A stretch of DNA of 64,000 nt. Origin: Nitrosopumilaceae archaeon. Its GTDB lineage: Archaea; Thermoproteota; Nitrososphaeria; Nitrososphaerales; Nitrosopumilaceae. Location: assembly GCA_965200155.1 (NCBI GenBank), contig CBDATR010000010.1, positions 32,001 through 96,000 of the forward strand, in the 5' to 3' direction. Shown here piece by piece: positions 4,236 to 55,277 of the stretch (within the stretch, counting starts at the first letter, position 1; each line of letters starts with the position of its first letter). Under the pieces are notes generated by a model. The model had not been told where the DNA came from. It did no database searches and was given only the letters and a program-made list of their open reading frames with translations. A program made the position numbers and the translations under genes.

Positions 4236-6491
4236 TCATCTATTCCTGATTACGTTCAGAGCGGATCCCGCACGGAACCACTCTATCTGTGATGCGCTAT
4301 AGGAGTGGCGTAATTGTATGGTATGTGTAGTTCCGTCCTGATGCTCCAGTATGCAGGATATGGGATGTTCGGGCCTCATTTGCTCAAGTCCAACTATGCT
4401 TAAGCTATCATCCTCCATTATACGGTCATAATCTGATTCGTCCTGGAATGTCAGTGCCAGTATGCCCTGCTTTTTTAGATTCGTTTCGTGTATGCGTGCA
4501 AAACTCCGGGCTATGACTGCGGCGCACCCCAGATATCTTGGCGTCATGGCGGCGTGCTCCCTGCTGCTACCCTCGCCATAGTTGCGGTCTCCCACAATGA
4601 CCCATGGAATATCTTCCTTCTGGTACGCCCTGGCTATGCATGCAAAGTCCTCGGTATCTCCTGTAAGGAAATTCTTGCCCTCTCCGGCCTTGCCCGTGTA
4701 GTAGTTTATCGCTCCCATGAGCATGTTGTCACTAAGGTTGCCCAGGTGCCCGCGATATGACAGCCAGGGGCCTGCCGGTGATATGTGATCAGTGGTGCAC
4801 TTGCCCCTGGCTTTTACCATGAGTCTCATGCCTGTCTTGTCCTTGCCGTCCCACTCATTAAATGGCTCTATTCGCTGGAGGCGCTTGCTGGCTGGATCTA
4901 TGATTACCTCAATGTCCCGGCCATCTTCGGGCGGGGATACGTATATGCCCTCGGGTATGCTGAAACCATTCTCTGGAACCTCGTCCGCTGCCGGTGGCGG
5001 TTCCAGGTGGAATTGTGTCCCGTCCGGCGCACTTAGTGTATCCTGGACGGGATTAAATGAGAGCCTGCCACCCAGTGCCAGCGCGATAACCATCTCGGGA
5101 CTGCCTATGAAGTTGAGCGTACTGCGACTGCCGTCATTTCTCCCGGGAAAGTTGCGATTAAAGGAGGTCACTATGGTATTCTCCTTGCCTGGTACTATCT
5201 CTGGGCGACTCCACTGTCCTATACATGGTCCGCATGCATTTGCCAGGACGGTGGCCCCAATGTCCACCAGTGACTGCATCTGCCCGTCCCGCTCTATGGT
5301 AGCTCTTATCTGCTCAGAGCCGGGCGTAACTAATAGTGGTACTGCCGCCTTCACTCCGTGGGCCTTGGCCTGCTCTGCTATACTTGCCGCTCTTGACATG
5401 TCCTCGTAAGAGGAGTTAGTACAGCTGCCCACAAGAGCCACGGATATATCATCAACGTACTTTTGCGATTCCACGTCCGGCGCCATTGCCGATACGGGGC
5501 GGGCCAAATCCGGAGTATGGGGACCCACTATGTGGGGCTCCAGCGAAGAGAGGTCTATCTCTATTATCCGGTCATAATGATTTTGTGGGTTCTCCAAGAC
5601 CCCGTAATCCGCGGTCAGTATGTCACGGTTCCTGTTGGCTAGCTGAGCTATGGCTGATCGGTTGGTATACTGGAGATACTTTTCCATCCGAGAATCATAC
5701 GGGAATATGGAGCAAGTGGCGCCCACCTCTGCGCCCATATTGGTAATGGTGGCTTTTCCGGTACAACTAATGGACTCTGTTCCCTCGCCAAAATACTCTA
5801 TCACTGAATTGGTGCCGCCGGATACGCTCAGCTCCTTGGCCACCACTAATATGATATCCTTGGGGGATGTCCAGGATCCCAGTTTTCCAGTCAAATGGAC
5901 GCCAATGCGCTTGGGGTACAATACTTCCCAGGATAATCCCGCCATGGATTCGGCTGCATCAACTCCGCCCACGCCTACGGCCAACATGCCCAAACCTCCA
6001 CCGTTGGGCGTGTGCGAGTCAGTTCCTATCATGAGTCCTCCGGGAAAGGCATAATTTTCCAGTACTACCTGGTGTATTATTCCAGCACCGGGTCTCCAAA
6101 AGCCGCATCCGTATCTGGCCGCCGCGGACTGTAGAAACTGGAACACCTCGCTGTTCTCATCAATGGATACAGCCATATCCGCCTTGCCATCTGTGCGTGC
6201 ACGAATGAGATGGTCACAGTGTATGGATACGGGCAATGCCGCCTTGTCCAGTCCAGCCTGCATGAACTGCAAAATTACTGTCTGGCCTGTTACATCCTGT
6301 AACGCCACCCTGTCCGGTTTTAGCGCGATATATCCTTCCGGCTCTCCTTTGGGAATCTGCATCATGTGACCCGCGAGTATCTTTTCTGTTAGCGTCAGTG
6401 GCCTGTTTACCACGCGCCTAAAGGCCTCGATGTTTTGCCGGTTTCTGGCATATACTCCTTGTACCATGTCTGTTGTGGTCTCCACTGGCAT
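4236..6491 (-). CDS. acnA: Aconitate hydratase
   Basis: QDVTGQ, HCDH, GTDSHT, GSCTNSS, ACGPCIG and NYGEGSSREHAA motifs. Start set at MPVETT because the upstream part of the ORF runs into a MITE. Confidence 0.95.
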   Translation of the reverse strand: MPVETTTDMVQGVYARNRQNIEAFRRVVNRPLTLTEKILAGHMMQIPKGEPEGYIALKPDRVALQDVTGQTVILQFMQAGLDKAALPVSIHCDHLIRARTDGKADMAVSIDENSEVFQFLQSAAARYGCGFWRPGAGIIHQVVLENYAFPGGLMIGTDSHTPNGGGLGMLAVGVGGVDAAESMAGLSWEVLYPKRIGVHLTGKLGSWTSPKDIILVVAKELSVSGGTNSVIEYFGEGTESISCTGKATITNMGAEVGATCSIFPYDSRMEKYLQYTNRSAIAQLANRNRDILTADYGVLENPQNHYDRIIEIDLSSLEPHIVGPHTPDLARPVSAMAPDVESQKYVDDISVALVGSCTNSSYEDMSRAASIAEQAKAHGVKAAVPLLVTPGSEQIRATIERDGQMQSLVDIGATVLANACGPCIGQWSRPEIVPGKENTIVTSFNRNFPGRNDGSRSTLNFIGSPEMVIALALGGRLSFNPVQDTLSAPDGTQFHLEPPPAADEVPENGFSIPEGIYVSPPEDGRDIEVIIDPASKRLQRIEPFNEWDGKDKTGMRLMVKARGKCTTDHISPAGPWLSYRGHLGNLSDNMLMGAINYYTGKAGEGKNFLTGDTEDFACIARAYQKEDIPWVIVGDRNYGEGSSREHAAMTPRYLGCAAVIARSFARIHETNLKKQGILALTFQDESDYDRIMEDDSLSIVGLEQMRPEHPISCILEHQDGTTHTIQLRHSYSASQIEWFRAGSALNVIRNR

Positions 6492-6527
6492 GTCATTTCT
6501 TGGAATATGCCTGAATTTATATAGCGC

Positions 6528-6694
6528 GTAACCGTCTAGGTCACTCTTCCACACATTCCACCAAGGCAGAGACTAACTACGGTTATCTCACTGGCAGCGT
6601 GGAATACATGACTGGCATAGGTTCATTCCCTACCGGTTTGGTATATGTTTGCCAATGAAAACACACCACAATTCAGAGCGCCCTAAACGGTCAC
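6528..6694. mobile_element. MITE-B copy
   Basis: GTAACCGTCTAGGTCAC ... GCGCCCTAAACGGTCAC ends. Shares the GTTATCTCACTG block with the 2651 copy. Confidence 0.75.
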
Positions 6695-7105
6695 CTCCTT
6701 CAATGTGCTAGTATGCCACAGGCTACCTTATCACAATATGGCTGCTGTATAGCACCCACCATAAGTCTTTGCCGGGTATAGGACCGTACTTTTATAGAAC
6801 CACTACTAGAGTAGAATCGCCAGATGATGGATGACATAATTCGGACCGTCGTTATACCGTTGAAAAATAATAGAGAGTTCTCCCGGCGCACCAAGATATT
6901 TGGTCACACGTCAGATTATGTCTATAATAGAGCGGTATCCGAGATCAGTCTTGGTGGCTACTACATACCCGGAACCACTCTTGAATTGAAGCATGATCCG
7001 GCCAAGGTCAAGAATAAGAACGAGTACGCCAAGTCACCATATGGCCTAAAGAAGGGCGCTTCATTATACGTGAATCAGATATCGCATTCTAGAACGGTCA
7101 TCAAG

Positions 7106-7124
7106 AGACGGTTTACCCGTCCAA
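7106..7124 (+). repeat. Micro-hairpin insertion D1
   Basis: caag[AGACGGTTTACCCGTCCAA]caag. Confidence 0.8.
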
Positions 7125-7994
7125 CAAGAATGGTTTGTTCCTGGAATTGACAAAGTGGCGCCCTGATCTGGAGTGGATGCGCGAGTTACCCTCTAACTAT
7201 GGTCGGGGTGCCATACTACAGGCGTCTGTCGCGTGCAGACGCGCGTACGAGGATCATTCTAATTACATGCCACACCGGCGTGACTGACAGAATCATACTA
7301 TCATGTGTAAGACCACCAATCCGTCGCGGTGAGTTCGAGTTGGACCTGTGCAGTTTTGGTGTGGGGAGAACAACCAAACCAATCGATCATTCCTTGGACA
7401 TGCGCTCATTCAGGATAGTGGAACGAGTAACCAAAGTAGGGGTGCATCTGGGATGGTATTGGGCAGTCCACTGACTCCATTCAGGATAGTGGAACGAGTA
7501 ACCAATAGTAGGGAGCATCAATTCGAGATTCACATCAATATACGGGAGAAACCATCGACCGGCGTTGTTCGCGGCGTGGATGTCGGCGGGAAACATCTAG
7601 CTGTAACAGCTGACACGAATGGCATAACGATGATTCCCAACATGAGACATCGTTCCATATTGCGGGAGATTAGCGCACTCCAGAGTATTAGAACGCGAAA
7701 GGGCAAGCGCAGGAAGCGAAAGATTGAGAAGAAAATCATTCAATTACGACAGAAAGCCAACAACATTGCGAACGACTCCATGAATAGAATGGTCCACACG
7801 GTCACCAAAGGTGTGGACAGGGTAGTACTAGAGGATTTATCACCTATATCAATGACCAGACATGGCGGGAACCACAAAATAACAATGAACCGTTCCATGC
7901 GCGAGAACCGGGTAGGCGAATTCCGCCGGAAAGTAGTACAAAAGTGCGAGGCACTGGGGATTGAATTGGTGGCTGTGCCAGCGAGATACACGAG

Positions 7995-8014
7995 GGGGCG
8001 GTTTACCCGCCCAA
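7995..8014 (+). repeat. Micro-hairpin insertion D2
   Basis: cgag[GGGGCGGTTTACCCGCCCAA]cgag, splitting the YT|SQTC motif. Confidence 0.9.
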
Positions 8015-8165
8015 CGAGCCAGACCTGTCACGTGTGTGGAAACGTTGAGATAAATCACGATCAACTAGGGACACTTTCAATATGTAACCAGGAATTTCAC
8101 GCCGATATCAACGCGGCGTTTAGTAACCGGTTTCTCTGTATGGGGCGGCAGAGCGTGTCGTCCGG

Positions 8166-8185
8166 GGGGCGGTTTACCCGCCCAA
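8166..8185 (+). repeat. Micro-hairpin insertion D3
   Basis: ccgg[GGGGCGGTTTACCCGCCCAA]ccgg. Confidence 0.9.
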
Positions 8186-8275
8186 CCGGAGGCGTCAGGG
8201 CAGGAATAATGGCGACAATCCAAAGCCATGTACTGCCTAGGAACGAGGTGCCATGAAAATCATAGTCAAAGACTT

Positions 8276-9200
8276 ATGGCGACCACCATATCTAAGACAG
8301 AATCTATAATGGCACTATCCACAAACATTCCAGCGACAGAACATGTAGCAGCGATACAAATCATCTACAAATGTATAATCCAAGATTTTGATGCATTATC
8401 TATAATACTGTTCGGCTCTATGGCTCGTAGCGACCATGGCAAGTACAGTGACATCGATATCATGGTTGTGATGCCAGAAGGCACCAATACAAGCGTGGTA
8501 CATTATAGTATAGCGAACACCATAATTCTTTGGCATGCAAGACAGAGGCGCATGGCCGCAACAACAGTTGTGGCAGCCAGTATAGCGAACACCATAATTC
8601 TTTGGCATGCAAGACAGGGATTGTATGTGACATGTAGATTTGTTACCCAAGGACTCATGGTGACCGCTATATTCCTGCTGCCCGATGGATTTGGACATAG
8701 GTGTGGATACAATAGTGACAACACCGTTAATACTGGAGACAAAATCACATCTGCGCGGTTCCGTACAAAGAATGGCATACTGGGAGGTATAGAATTATAC
8801 GGTAATCACAAACTAAAATACGCCTTTGGGCATACTGATGACGCGAAGTCAGGATCCATATTGCTCGAAATTGCCCTTGATGATATTCAGTCAGCCATTG
8901 AAAATGACTCCGGCAAGACACCATACAAGAGTACGTGCGTACAATCCCCCCCAACAGGCGATAGAAAAGGCGCTCAAGTCTGTAAGGTCTGGTCCGGAAT
9001 AGAACCGAAACACATCAATTGAAATATCTCTATGCCAAGGTTCCGTCCGATTAGGGGATAAGCGCATCAGTAACAGATTCGGATGACATACCTAAACAGA
9101 ACATAGCTTCAAGATGTGATCACTCGCCTAGCAAAGGTGTTGCCAATTGGGAATTTTTATGTCGCCTCAAATATATGCAAAACCGCAAGGAATGAGACTA
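8276..9200 (+). pseudogene. Fused MNT-HEPN protein, disrupted
   Basis: IILFGSMARSD..SDIDIMVV, then HEPN-like QQAIEKALK in a shifted frame. Carries a MITE-C insertion. End approximate. Confidence 0.75.
8581..8671 (+). mobile_element. MITE-C (91 bp; partial second copy at 8509-8545)
   Basis: TIRs TATAGCGAACACCAT / ATGGTGACCGCTATA. Absent from the paralog at 11.8-12.6 kb. Confidence 0.85.
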
Positions 9201-46486: not shown

Positions 46487-46578
46487 GTATGAGTTCATCT
46501 GTGTCTAAATTTACGCATAACTGATCGCGACAGTTAATGTGATTTGTGCATAAGATTCCGGAAGACGTGAACTCATAC
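46487..46578 (-). mobile_element. MITE-A copy
   Basis: 92 bp, TSD CATTTTTC. Confidence 0.97.
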
Positions 46579-46697
46579 CATTTTTCACTTGGGCAGTTTA
46601 CCCTAAAACTTTACTAAATACAAAAAAATATTGCAACGACTCATTTGACATCAACTAACTCCAAACGTTAATTAGGACTTTGCTTATTGCGGTACTG

Positions 46698-52860: not shown

Positions 52861-53235
52861 ACAATGATATAGAAACCGCATTATGACTCGATGTTAGACC
52901 TTATGCGCAGAATCATTTGCCCAACATTACACGCTTAAACCAAGTTTATAGATACAAATGATTTGTCCAACACACACGTGTGTTAAACAGAAAAGGTCTA
53001 ATCTTGTAATATCTGGTATGCTAAAAGTAGAAGAACTCACCAAGGAGCAGTTAATAACAGAGTACAACCGGCTACGCACCGAGTCTGAGGCCGAAGTAAC
53101 AAACCTGCGTGGAAAAGTTGACAGTTTACGTGGAAAAAATGACAGCTTGTGTGGAAAAGTTGACAGCCTGCACGCCAAACTTGAAGCACACAATTCCCTT
53201 GTTTCAAATCTTGATGATGTCATAGAACGCAAGGA

Positions 53236-53327
53236 GTATGAGTTCACGTCTTCCGGAATCTTGTGCACAAATCACATTAACTGTCGCGATCAGTTGTGCG
53301 TAAATTTAGACACAGGTGAACTCATAC
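53236..53327 (+). mobile_element. MITE-A copy
   Basis: 92 bp, TSD CGCAAGGA. Confidence 0.97.
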
Positions 53328-53632
53328 CGCAAGGATTCGCTGACCGGATGCTCTCCGGAAGAGTTCACTTGGATACTGACCAGATTCAAGGAATATGTGG
53401 AATCTCTGGAAGGTGATGATACACGACGATTCCTAGAGATTGCAAATGATCGCGTACATGTTAACAAATTTCCAATTCGCCACCTGCTCTTAGTTACACT
53501 GATACACCTGCGCTGCAATACAAAACAGGAGCTGCTAGCAGCAATACTCAAGATAAATCAATCAAACATATGCAGATATATCCAGTTTACAAAGCGGGGT
53601 ATGATCAAGATACTTCCAACAGCAGATACAAT

Positions 53633-53724
53633 GTATGAGTTCACGTCTTCCGGAATCTTATGCATAAATCACATTAACTGTAGCGATCAGTTATGCGTAA
53701 ATTTAGACACAGGTGAACTCATAC
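53633..53724 (+). mobile_element. MITE-A copy
   Basis: 92 bp, TSD GATACAAT. Confidence 0.97.
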
Positions 53725-53761
53725 GATACAATTGCGGATGCGCTATCGCGGATCAAGTCAG

Positions 53762-55277
53762 TAGACCTTATGCGCATGATTGACAGGAATAGCCCATGTT
53801 GCTTCAAACTGGGGTGTATTTTATGGCACACAATCAGTCAAGCATGAACAATGTGAATGGCACCTGCCAGCACTAACGTATGCCGTGATTGCAAATGTCA
53901 TGTAGTGGGGTGACCGGATCTTGATGACGTATATCATGAGTGAGCTAAATGGTTACCACAAAACCCATTAATTTAGTGGATTTTCTGATGAGTAATATTC
54001 GAAGAAATTATGGACAGATATTTTTCAAGAATTTCTTGTACCTGGTATGCTTGTGCATAATGTGTAAATTATGCAACCCGGATACTACGAGTAGATCTTC
54101 CCGGAATTCCTCACGACTGCCATCATATACCTGACTTAATCTACGATATACCTTTAGCATTCGAATTACATTCTCGATTAATATGCGCCTTTTTGATACA
54201 TATTGGTTGTATTTCCTTTCAGTTTTAGTGAGTGATTCCCTACCCCTGTATGGAATTATGACCTTTGCGCCGGGTAGGAAGTCTTTCATACCCTGGTATC
54301 CTGCATCTGCTATTACTGTTATCTTCTCAGATGGCAGCGTGGTTGATTCTTTTAGGGACTTGCCCCATTTGCCTCCAAGGGGAATATCATTCTTGAATAT
54401 ACCATAATCGTGTCTTTTTCCCTCATATACTCCACTGACGTGAATTATCAGTCTTTTCTTGTTTGATGTTATCTGTACGTTATACGTGTGGGTTTTTTGT
54501 TTACCAGAGTACATTGCCTCCTGATTTTTTTCAGGACGTTGTACGCGTACATGTGTCCCGTCAGTCTTTATCTCCCCTCCGGCTCGGCCTGGAACAATTT
54601 CCTTAAAGTCCGATGCTGACTTGATTTGTGATATTGCTTTTGCAACGGTATCGGCCGTTGGGAGTATCTTGATCAGTCCCTGCTTTGTAAACTGGATGTA
54701 ACGACATATGTTTGACTGGTTTATCTTGAGTATTGCTGCCAGCAGCTCCTGCTTTGTATTGCAGCGCAGGCGTATCAGTGTAACTAAGAGTACATGCCTG
54801 ACCGGAAATTTGTTCACATGGCCGCGATCATTTGTAAGTTCTAAGAATCGCCGTGCATCATCGCCTTCCAGGGACTCTACGTATTCTGTGAATCTGATTA
54901 GTATCCATTTGAACTCTTCCGGGGTGCATCCGGTCAGGGAATGAAGCTGATCCTTGCGTTCTATGATGTCATCAAGATTTGAAACGAGGGCATTCTTTGT
55001 TTGAGCTTCAAGTTTGGCGTGCAGGCTGTCATTTTTTCCACGCAGGTTTGTTACTTCGGCCTCAGACTCGGTGCGTAGCCGGTTGTATTCTGTGACTAAC
55101 TGCTCCTTGGTGAGTTCTTCTACTTTTAGCATACCTGGTATTACAAAATTAGGTCTTAACTTTTCTGTTTCACACGAGTCTGTGTGGGAAAACCCATGAT
55201 ACTAGGTCGATTGTTCGTATCTAACAACTTGGTTTAGACGTGCAGGGTGGGAGAAGTGATTCTGCGCATACGGTCTA
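53762..55277 (-). mobile_element. Complete IS5-family (ISL2-group) insertion sequence
   Basis: TIRs TAGACC(T/G)TATGCGCA at both ends with an intact transposase. Confidence 0.92.
54008..55132 (-). CDS. DDE_Tnp_4-type transposase
   Basis: DGT..VQRP, YSGK, HD, ADAGYQG and RILIEN..LK motifs. Confidence 0.93.
   Translation of the reverse strand: MLKVEELTKEQLVTEYNRLRTESEAEVTNLRGKNDSLHAKLEAQTKNALVSNLDDIIERKDQLHSLTGCTPEEFKWILIRFTEYVESLEGDDARRFLELTNDRGHVNKFPVRHVLLVTLIRLRCNTKQELLAAILKINQSNICRYIQFTKQGLIKILPTADTVAKAISQIKSASDFKEIVPGRAGGEIKTDGTHVRVQRPEKNQEAMYSGKQKTHTYNVQITSNKKRLIIHVSGVYEGKRHDYGIFKNDIPLGGKWGKSLKESTTLPSEKITVIADAGYQGMKDFLPGAKVIIPYRGRESLTKTERKYNQYVSKRRILIENVIRMLKVYRRLSQVYDGSREEFREDLLVVSGLHNLHIMHKHTRYKKFLKNICP

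Follow-up and report, generated by a model that had tools for sequence, protein, structure and literature searches.

Three short hairpins lie within a broken tnpB gene in the DNA stretch analysed here, that is, a window of 64,000 nt corresponding to C10:32001-96000 in the genome of a Nitrosopumilaceae archaeon (2.38 Mb in 51 contigs, 46.6% GC, 87.6% complete). Each hairpin is bordered on both sides by the same 4-nt sequence. We think it probable that these hairpins are members of a family of mobile elements that is limited to this lineage and consists of ultra-small palindromes (19-26 nt) without genes.

Three hairpin insertions in a decayed tnpB gene

The window was scanned with the pattern GRCGGTTTACCCGYCC, with up to 2 mismatches allowed and 100 shuffles as the control. 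The pattern was found exactly 3 times, at 7107-7122, 7997-8012 and 8168-8183, all on the + strand; the number expected by chance is 0.10, and 0/100 shuffles reach 3. The initial annotation, which was made from the letters of the window, had described three hairpins of one orientation with duplications of the CNNG type, and they were confirmed at the positions listed in Table 1. The compensatory pair that it had seen in the first copy was also found: hairpin 1 differs from hairpins 2 and 3 by one paired change, G:C to A:T, and it has the stem GACGG/CCGTC, the loop TTTAC and AA at its 3' side. In DNA folding, the three sequences form stems of 5-6 bp with the loop TTTAC, and the minimum free energies calculated with the flanks are -4.6, -7.8 and -11.5 kcal/mol for hairpins 1, 2 and 3, respectively. 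No other full copy is present in the window, in agreement with the annotation. The partial likeness that it mentioned near 46590, GGGCAGTTTACCC, lacks both a real stem and a CCAA end, and it was not counted as a member of the family.

The host gene is a broken gene for TnpB (OrfB_IS605). Its N-terminal part, an open reading frame (ORF) of 108 aa, enters hairpin 1 and stops soon after it, out of frame. The C-terminal ORF stays open through hairpins 2 and 3, and it matched PF01385 OrfB_IS605 with 35.2 bits (cut-off 30.5) and PF07282 Cas12f1-like_TNB with 40.3 bits (cut-off 26.3). Hairpin 2 is translated in this frame as RGRFTRPT between YT and SQTC, that is, as 8 extra codons including the duplication. 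Intact homologues read YTSQTC at this position, and the in-frame interruption of the YTSQxC motif was thus verified.

Intact TnpB homologues of the same genus consist of 453-471 aa and show 50-54% identity. Their sequences at the three sites are KYGMFKQLTEW, YTSQTCHVCG and, as DNA, GTCGTCCTGAGGCG, and their alignment with the window copy showed no inserts at any of the three. We also compared the window copy with its paralogues in the genome that could be anchored on both sides of a site. Site 1 was filled in 18/20 of them and empty in 2, site 2 was filled in 21/24 and empty in 3, which are exactly 24 nt shorter, and site 3 was filled in 17/21 and empty in 4. The empty paralogues are shorter by exactly the hairpin and one 4-mer, and they keep a single 4-mer. 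Since intact homologues of the same genus and some paralogues are without the hairpins, the sequence comparison indicates that all three are insertions with true target duplications. The proposal that an exceptionally small unit had been inserted was therefore upheld by the empty sites. As to the size of insert 1, the annotation gave 23 bp with a frameshift. Deleting 23 nt at hairpin 1 of the window copy indeed brings NGLFLELTKW into frame with the upstream ORF, but the 2 empty paralogues at site 1 are 24 nt shorter between the anchors. The original size of this insert, 23 or 24 nt, is therefore ambiguous.

It might be supposed that the hairpins are native, ancestral segments of this TnpB lineage or, at site 3, a part of its guide RNA. 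Guide-RNA scaffolds overlap the 3' end of tnpB; site 3 is near this end, and the divergent copies have structure-preserving variants there. However, all three hairpins are missing from the intact homologues, the difference of the empty paralogues is exactly one hairpin plus one 4-mer, and related hairpins are present in unrelated genes. We regard a native origin as hardly credible.

An archaeal bulge-helix-bulge intron is removed from the RNA, and together with the exon flanks it forms a 4-bp helix that lies between two bulges of 3 nt. This candidate was rejected by inspection: the flanks of the hairpins are direct repeats, and they are non-complementary except for CCGG and CTAG. In 2 RNA runs, no contig skipping a hairpin was found, which is weak evidence as only contigs were covered.

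The element that carries the gene is a tnpB-only insertion sequence (IS). Homology within this family covers positions 146-1690 of the blastn query (window 6601-8400), and the genome contains about 30 decayed paralogues with about 85-92% identity. No intact tnpB of this family was found in the genome, where the longest frame is 349 aa. As side observations, the sequences at 6757-6777 (..CCACCATAAGTCTTTG..) and 8266-8286 (..CAAAGACTTATGGCGACCACC..) form inverted-repeat-like ends of the element, which differ from the usual subterminal hairpins of IS200/IS605. In the window copy, about 71 nt are also duplicated in tandem within the element (7407-7441 / 7478-7513, a repeat of TTCAGGATAGTGGAACGAGTAACCAA...), unlike in the other tnpB copies (in blastn, query 807-841 matches 878-913).

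Table 1. Positions of the hairpins, their target copies and the parts of the host tnpB element in the window
Feature	Position	Strand	Basis
Decayed tnpB-only IS, host of all three hairpins	6746..8290	+	blastn of window 6601-8400 against the genome
N-terminal TnpB fragment, 108-aa ORF	6824..7150	+	YVYNRAVSE matches intact same-genus homologues
Left CAAG target copy, site 1	7102..7105	+	read from sequence
Hairpin element 1, AGACGGTTTACCCGTCCAA (19 nt)	7106..7124	+	sequence, pattern scan, fold
Right CAAG target copy, site 1	7125..7128	+	read from sequence
C-terminal TnpB fragment, 302-aa ORF (RuvC-like core and zinc ribbon)	7348..8256	+	PF01385, PF07282
Left CGAG target copy, site 2	7991..7994	+	read from sequence
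Hairpin element 2, GGGGCGGTTTACCCGCCCAA (20-mer), interrupts YTSQTC motif	7995..8014	+	sequence, scan, ORF, fold
Right CGAG target copy, site 2	8015..8018	+	read from sequence
Left CCGG target copy, site 3	8162..8165	+	read from sequence
Hairpin element 3, same 20-mer as element 2	8166..8185	+	sequence, pattern scan
Right CCGG target copy, site 3	8186..8189	+	read from sequence

Spread with the insertion sequence and the wider hairpin family

The exact motif was found at 32 places in the genome, and the reversed control pattern at 0. Nearly all of the 32 occurrences, which are distributed across contigs, have flanks that match one of the three sites in tnpB, and most of the about 30 copies of the tnpB IS share the same three inserts at the same sites. 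Because the inserts recur at these three sites in most paralogues, their clustering in tnpB is due to inheritance with the IS. That is, the inserts entered ancestral copies of the tnpB-only IS long ago and were then multiplied passively as the IS spread. When the fill states of 24 tnpB copies were compared, most copies were full at all three sites, 2 or 3 were filled only at site 1, one was empty only at site 1, and one was empty at all three. In a tree of these copies (FastTree, midpoint root), the copies filled only at site 1 are nested among the fully filled ones. This fill pattern needs several gains, precise losses or gene conversion.

Site 3 holds various hairpins. Most copies carry here a 26-nt hairpin, GGGGCGGGGAACCGTTCCCCGCCCAA, followed by CCGG, instead of the 20-nt type, which is limited to the window copy and two others; an interval of 29 nt occurs only in the window copy among the 21 anchored copies. 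In divergent tnpB lineages, this site has other hairpins flanked by CTAG/CTAG, CCAC/CCAG and CCGG/CCGG, so that at least 5 different hairpins occupy site 3 across the lineages, and one copy on contig C43 has an array of three hairpin units there. Three inserts in one IS family and many types of hairpin at site 3 suggest that this site is a local insertion hot spot.

The genome was then scanned as a whole for hairpins that start with GGR and end with YCC, and 3,134 distinct loci were obtained. A matched 4-mer on both flanks was present at 27/235 loci with an AA tail, compared with 36/2,899 loci with the other 15 dinucleotides. About 22/27 of these duplication-bearing loci are convincing as independent loci of the family. 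The form of the family is N4 / (G)GGR-stem-loop-stem-YCCAA / N4, with 19-26 nt in the element and 23-30 nt in the whole insert. In detail, (G)GG(G/A) on the 5' side is followed by a variable stem of 5-11 bp, a loop of 1-8 nt, an arm ending with (C/T)CC, and an unpaired AA. The stem types GGGGCGG, GGGACGG, GGGACTCTTA, GGACTGTTA, GGGGCTAC and GGGAAAT all end with YCCAA. The 4-nt duplications are CAAG (8 loci), CGAG (7), TGAG, CCGG, CTAG, CCAG, CCAT and CAAA, mostly of the form C-N-R-G; the base before them is usually A or T, and the base after them A (tally of 11-12 loci outside arrays).

Besides the three sites in tnpB, members of the family were recognised in an rve transposase of the IS481/IS3-like type, in an IS1595-like gene and in a Type ISP restriction-modification gene, and they are also present in non-coding DNA. 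In the zinc-ribbon gene of the IS1595-like type, the insert is translated through as GTLKKKSNQ, and in the Type ISP gene a frame of 811 codons is open across the insert. All of the unambiguous inserts in a coding context (5/5) have a size of 24, 27 or 30 nt, and 11/18 of the others are also multiples of 3; a preference for such sizes is suggestive, the subfamilies being related to each other. About 8 of the about 22 credible loci are inside IS genes. This is no clear excess in a genome of which 30.8% of the bases are repeated, and since about 31% of the genome is repeated, IS genes make up a large neutral target. Targeting specific to tnpB was rejected. A mechanism of inactivation aimed at tnpB, which the annotation had considered, does not agree with inserts that are inherited with the IS and have relatives in other genes and in non-coding DNA. 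The clustering in tnpB is hitch-hiking combined with a hot spot, not a dedicated silencing system.

Members of the family also form arrays. At C5:64420-64500, three different hairpins are arranged with TGAG between them. This region adjoins the downstream side of a multi-copy surface-protein gene, and in its paralogous copies, which are about 95-97% identical, the number of hairpin units at one position is 0, 2, 3 or at least 7; the units vary in sequence but are always separated by TGAG. That different units are combined in an array speaks for insertion having occurred repeatedly next to units already present. Six identical units in an array on contig C35 and identical doublets in two rve copies could equally be products of slippage.

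If the hairpins are mobile elements, an enzyme acting in trans would cut the target with a 4-nt stagger and join the hairpin in, and the fill-in of the stagger would produce the target duplication. Such a cut is suggested because one element has matched 4-mers that are specific to the site, and empty sites have single copies: the identical 20-mer is bordered by CGAG/CGAG, CCGG/CCGG and TGAG/TGAG at different loci. The enzyme may read the shape of the hairpin or palindrome together with 4-6 terminal bases, not a long sequence, because the stems differ between subfamilies while the ends stay constant. New elements would prefer sites beside existing elements, which would lead to tandem arrays of different hairpins with one shared 4-mer, and a small number of hot spots, for example, site 3 of tnpB, might also be targeted. 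The elements may move on their own or may have done so in the past, and they would spread mainly by riding IS copies. Covariation of element and target, that is, a guide built into the element, was rejected, as the same element occurs with different 4-mers.

Several points weigh against mobile elements of this kind. The empty tnpB paralogues could be precise slippage losses between the 4-nt repeats, and the trees of copies (tnpB, rve) cannot separate gain from loss. About 5/27 of the duplication loci are probably chance matches or native sequence, for example, the SecY segment WVELGGLSPK. No PF01797 Y1_Tnp was found in this 87.6% complete genome (E <= 0.001; the control was positive in 6/14 known genomes). 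To find a parent IS, we looked for ends of the types GGR... and ...YCCAA that carried an identical 4-mer, were spaced by 40-6000 nt and were inverted over at least 8 bp. The search gave 16 pairs, a chance level, and none of them recurred; 2/16 had a 4-mer of the form C-N-R-G, one of these being a known tandem doublet. Solitary half-hairpins do not recur as IS termini in the genome. The resident DDE transposases (DDE_Tnp_4, IS66-like, rve) are not tied to 4-nt duplications: in a partner search that was not exhaustive, no 4-nt C-N-R-G duplication was seen at the ends of the rve IS, of an IS66-like MITE (miniature inverted-repeat transposable element) or of the DDE_Tnp_4 element, and the duplications are 12-13 bp for the rve IS and about 9 bp for the IS66-like MITE. 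The arms of 7-11 bp are shorter than the ends bound by known DDE transposases. In addition, no contig skips any hairpin in window 6400-8600 in four sponge runs (2 of DNA or of unknown kind, and 2 of RNA), contigs being prone to drop rare variants; this is a weak observation, but no ongoing movement was seen in the run contigs.

The hairpins may alternatively be elements of the HUH/Y1 type, either similar to repetitive extragenic palindromes (REPs) with their REP-associated tyrosine transposases (RAYTs) or derived from IS200/IS605, as the annotation had suggested. In this case, the folded hairpin would be recognised by a tyrosine transposase, which would cut after a tetranucleotide and insert the element 3' of a similar one, and the duplication would be only apparent. 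Variable stems, a short tag (CCAA, or TTGG when read from the opposite strand) that is conserved at one end, and the occurrence in arrays would suit such elements, and 8/8 inserts with a recognisable host gene are in sense orientation, some of these sites being homologous and hence not independent. REPs of 20-40 nt lie inside genes in some species, according to a REP survey (PMC3733652), in which the word 'duplication' does not appear. On the other hand, pairs of CGAG, CCGG or TGAG around the same element are incompatible with a fixed right-end tetranucleotide. That is, the 4-mers follow the site and not the element. The rare 4-mers CCAT, CAAA, CCAG and CTAG also match on both sides, and the pattern at sites 2 and 3 is already that of both flanking 4-mers coming from one target copy. 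The lack of a PF01797 match points in the same direction, although absence is not proven at this completeness of the genome. Taken comprehensively, we consider a link to Y1 chemistry unlikely.

Another explanation is that the hairpins are stereotyped footprints of excision, in which a larger IS with a 4-bp duplication would have entered and left again repeatedly, so that about 10 nt from each inverted end stayed behind. The order of duplication, left arm, right arm and duplication fits a remnant of two ends, and the loops vary between subfamilies. However, no element with a length of 40-6000 bp that has such ends together with a matched 4-mer recurs in the genome, and the half-sequences are absent as solitary repeated termini, so that neither a parent of such footprints nor the collapsed ends of a known IS, which the annotation had mentioned, could be recognised. 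The ends are also constantly asymmetric (G on the 5' side and AA on the 3' side), and identical 20-mers at unrelated loci, together with arrays of at least 7 units, would need many identical events of entry, exit and repair. We therefore judge footprints to be decidedly unlikely.

The rve transposase copies and the possibility of bypassing

In the rve family, the hairpin site lies between ...NGKLERFHRTIEDE and IW.... At this site, 47 copies have GGGACTCTTATTTAAGAGTCCAA with its duplication, and 41 copies are empty. The insert has 27 nt and is in frame, with TAA in the loop of the hairpin. The empty copies mostly have CGAG, and the filled copies have CGAG...TGAG (26), CGAG...CGAG (12) or CTAG...CGAG (4). 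In a tree of 66 rve copies, the state of the hairpin needed 17 changes, compared with a mean of 17.8 in 500 shuffles, and a control single-nucleotide polymorphism (SNP) that was kept out of the tree needed 15 changes, compared with 14.1. Ordinary columns are highly homoplastic, and the pairwise identities are uniformly 93-96%. The rve family is star-like or recombined, and the order of gain and loss of the hairpin is not inferable from the tree.

These data bear on the explanation that the hairpins are not mobile, but arose a few times by local errors of replication (slippage or template switching) and were then distributed by gene conversion and tandem slippage among IS paralogues. The star-like or recombined rve copies, with both the hairpin and the control SNP near the means of the shuffles, would agree with it, as would the identical tandem doublets in 2 rve copies and the 14 nt that the first array unit shares with the flank behind the array. 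However, the same hairpins are present with their own duplications at non-homologous places, namely, tnpB site 2, tnpB site 3 and the array downstream of the surface-protein gene. In addition, the AA and 4-mer behind the stem are not complementary to the upstream flank, unlike in template switching, and the arrays combine unrelated units. A non-mobile origin thus seems very unlikely to us.

An unbroken transposase frame was found in 1/81 rve copies, at G000:C24:93022-93980 (L090:1054-2007). The other copies each have at least 4 frame-breaking lesions relative to this intact copy. Since most of them share indels relative to it, the bulk of the rve copies is a deletion derivative. The intact copy itself carries the hairpin, at L090:1873-1902 (GAG ... 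TAA in the loop ... GAG). The TAA is inside the conserved rve_3 segment, and the next 34 codons are open to the natural stop. Behind the insert, there are 7 synonymous and 5 non-synonymous variants among those that occur in at least 5 copies, compared with 6 and 23 among the singletons. Because the shared variants are mostly synonymous and the singletons mostly non-synonymous, the tail behind the insert was under constraint during the diversification of the family. The hairpin-bearing intact gene may be a freshly dead gene or a tolerated truncation.

It could also be imagined that the hairpins are tolerated in genes as ribosomes, or a process at the RNA level, skip them or read through them, with the duplicated 4-mer providing matched take-off and landing codons 24-30 nt apart. 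The lead for this idea, which we regard as a long shot, would be the intact rve copy, with gene 60 of phage T4 or mitochondrial 'byp' as possible models by analogy. If this were the case, Archaea would have their first reported example of translational bypassing, or of an equivalent process, and it would be linked to a mobile micro-element. The single intact rve gene with a stop in its hairpin offers a concrete and testable case of read-through or bypassing in archaea.

Host genome, distribution and comparison with known systems

The nearest named relatives of the window tnpB are from a metagenome-assembled genome of the Nitrosopumilaceae, and the public runs that contain the stretch are sponge metagenomes and metatranscriptomes. 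The host is most likely a sponge-associated ammonia-oxidising archaeon. DNA with at least 1 other copy makes up the 30.8% of the genome bases mentioned above, and DNA with 20 or more makes up 14.8%; this bloom of IS and MITEs is extreme for a 2.4-Mb genome. The repeat families in the genome include IS66-type elements, hundreds of 95-nt MITEs with IS66-like ends, DDE_Tnp_4 and rve; an intact transposase of the IS66 family has 549 aa.

Some other repeats were observed along the way. The hairpin MITE of about 95 nt is present at 46540-46580, 53236-53330 and 53633-53724 of the window and at many other places. Its 12-nt ends, GTATGAGTTCAC, are identical to those of local IS66-type elements, its duplications are about 9 nt long, and it has several hundred copies in the genome (1,396 BLAST segments with a query that contained two copies). 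A DDE_Tnp_4 / HTH_Tnp_4 transposon is present twice at 52900-55270 in a head-to-head arrangement, one copy being decayed (52958-53780, + strand) and the other intact with 374 aa (54008..55132, - strand); a sequence of about 57 nt bounds both and recurs at both ends of further copies. At C7:13680-14740, a 14-nt unit, CAAACATCGCGGAA, is repeated about 75 times in a long tandem array, which gave false positives in the hairpin scan. Finally, a 39-nt direct repeat at 8507-8545 and 8579-8617 surrounds a unique insert of 33 nt (period 72) within a nucleotidyltransferase-like ORF (8228..9022). The contigs of four sponge runs have loose ends at 8543-8545 and continue with the sequence after the second repeat. 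Because of this jump, an allele without the 33-nt insert seems to exist at 8507-8617.

Outside this genome, the exact motif was found in 0/40 relatives. A generic pattern gave 42 matches in this genome. Among 150 genomes of its family, the number per genome was 0-2; 11/150 had any match, and most of these matches are not hairpins. A metagenome scan with a 19-mer gave 5 matches, all on contigs of 61-66% GC, without duplications and in unrelated coding sequence. The distribution of the hairpin family is limited to this lineage. In the literature on Thaumarchaeota, we found no account of elements of this kind, and 'MITE' and 'hairpin' have 0 occurrences in the text of a survey of thaumarchaeal mobile elements (PMC6563490), the supplementary files of which may list small repeats.

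Mobile DNA shorter than about 30 nt with target duplications is barely documented, and the present family bears on how little sequence transposition needs. Stems that are free to vary beside 4-6 kept terminal bases point to recognition of shape, not of sequence. It appears that such micro-elements, while hardly moving by themselves, reach high copy numbers because they are carried along in the bloom of IS in an archaeon restricted to its host. In gene annotation, odd insertions of 8-10 residues and frame breaks in transposase and restriction genes are explained by the inserts, which also serve as dated markers for IS subfamilies.

Among the nearest known systems, REP elements are GC-rich palindromes of 20-40 nt with a GTAG or CGTC tetranucleotide tag at one end (PMC3733652). 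Subfamilies of REPs and REPINs have different stems, and they occur as single units, pairs or arrays, in some cases within genes (PMC3733652 and PMC3116915). The likeness to our family lies in the short palindromes, the tag at one end, the varied stems, the arrays and the partly intragenic positions. The differences from them are that the tag here is CCAA on the 3' side instead of GTAG or CGTC, that the 4-nt target duplications are true ones, and that the arrays are head-to-tail and not inverted pairs; in addition, no Y1/RAYT gene (PF01797, 0 matches) was found in the 87.6% complete genome. Hairpins derived from IS200/IS605 have a fixed tetra- or pentanucleotide and no duplication, whereas the matched 4-mers here vary by site.

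MITEs are usually longer than about 50-100 nt. In prokaryotes they are gene-less, have inverted-repeat ends and a target-site duplication, and are moved in trans (PMC10969869). Our hairpins resemble them in that the whole hairpin is one inverted repeat (arms of 5-11 bp) without coding capacity and with a duplication of a fixed 4 nt. They differ from MITEs in having only 19-26 nt, no internal sequence and no autonomous IS with the same ends in this genome; the relatives provided no such parent either, being without the hairpin family altogether. In conclusion, the family is distinct from REPs in its tag and in RAYT, from IS200/IS605 derivatives, and from classical MITEs in parent IS and size.

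Rickettsia palindromic elements are about 100-150 bp long, compared with the 23-30 nt of a whole insert here. The GC clusters of yeast mitochondria, the 'byp' elements and the gap of T4 gene 60 are small GC-rich hairpin inserts within coding sequence, and they are flanked by short direct repeats. Our hairpins are likewise inserts of this type, with flanking repeats that could act as matched take-off and landing codons, and one member has an in-frame stop in its loop. They differ in their archaeal host, in their smaller size and in that the genes which contain them are mostly dead. The byp elements of Magnusiomyces mitochondria are treated in bioRxiv 10.1101/2022.08.31.505936. As for cyanobacteria, Elhai et al. 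are said to have described in 2008 the SDR4/5/6 repeats of Nostocaceae. These are dispersed repeats with a length of about 21-27 nt; they reportedly behave like mobile DNA, have no known enzyme and are also found in tandem and within other mobile elements. They are similar in these respects to the hairpins of the present archaeon but differ in their cyanobacterial host and unrelated sequence.

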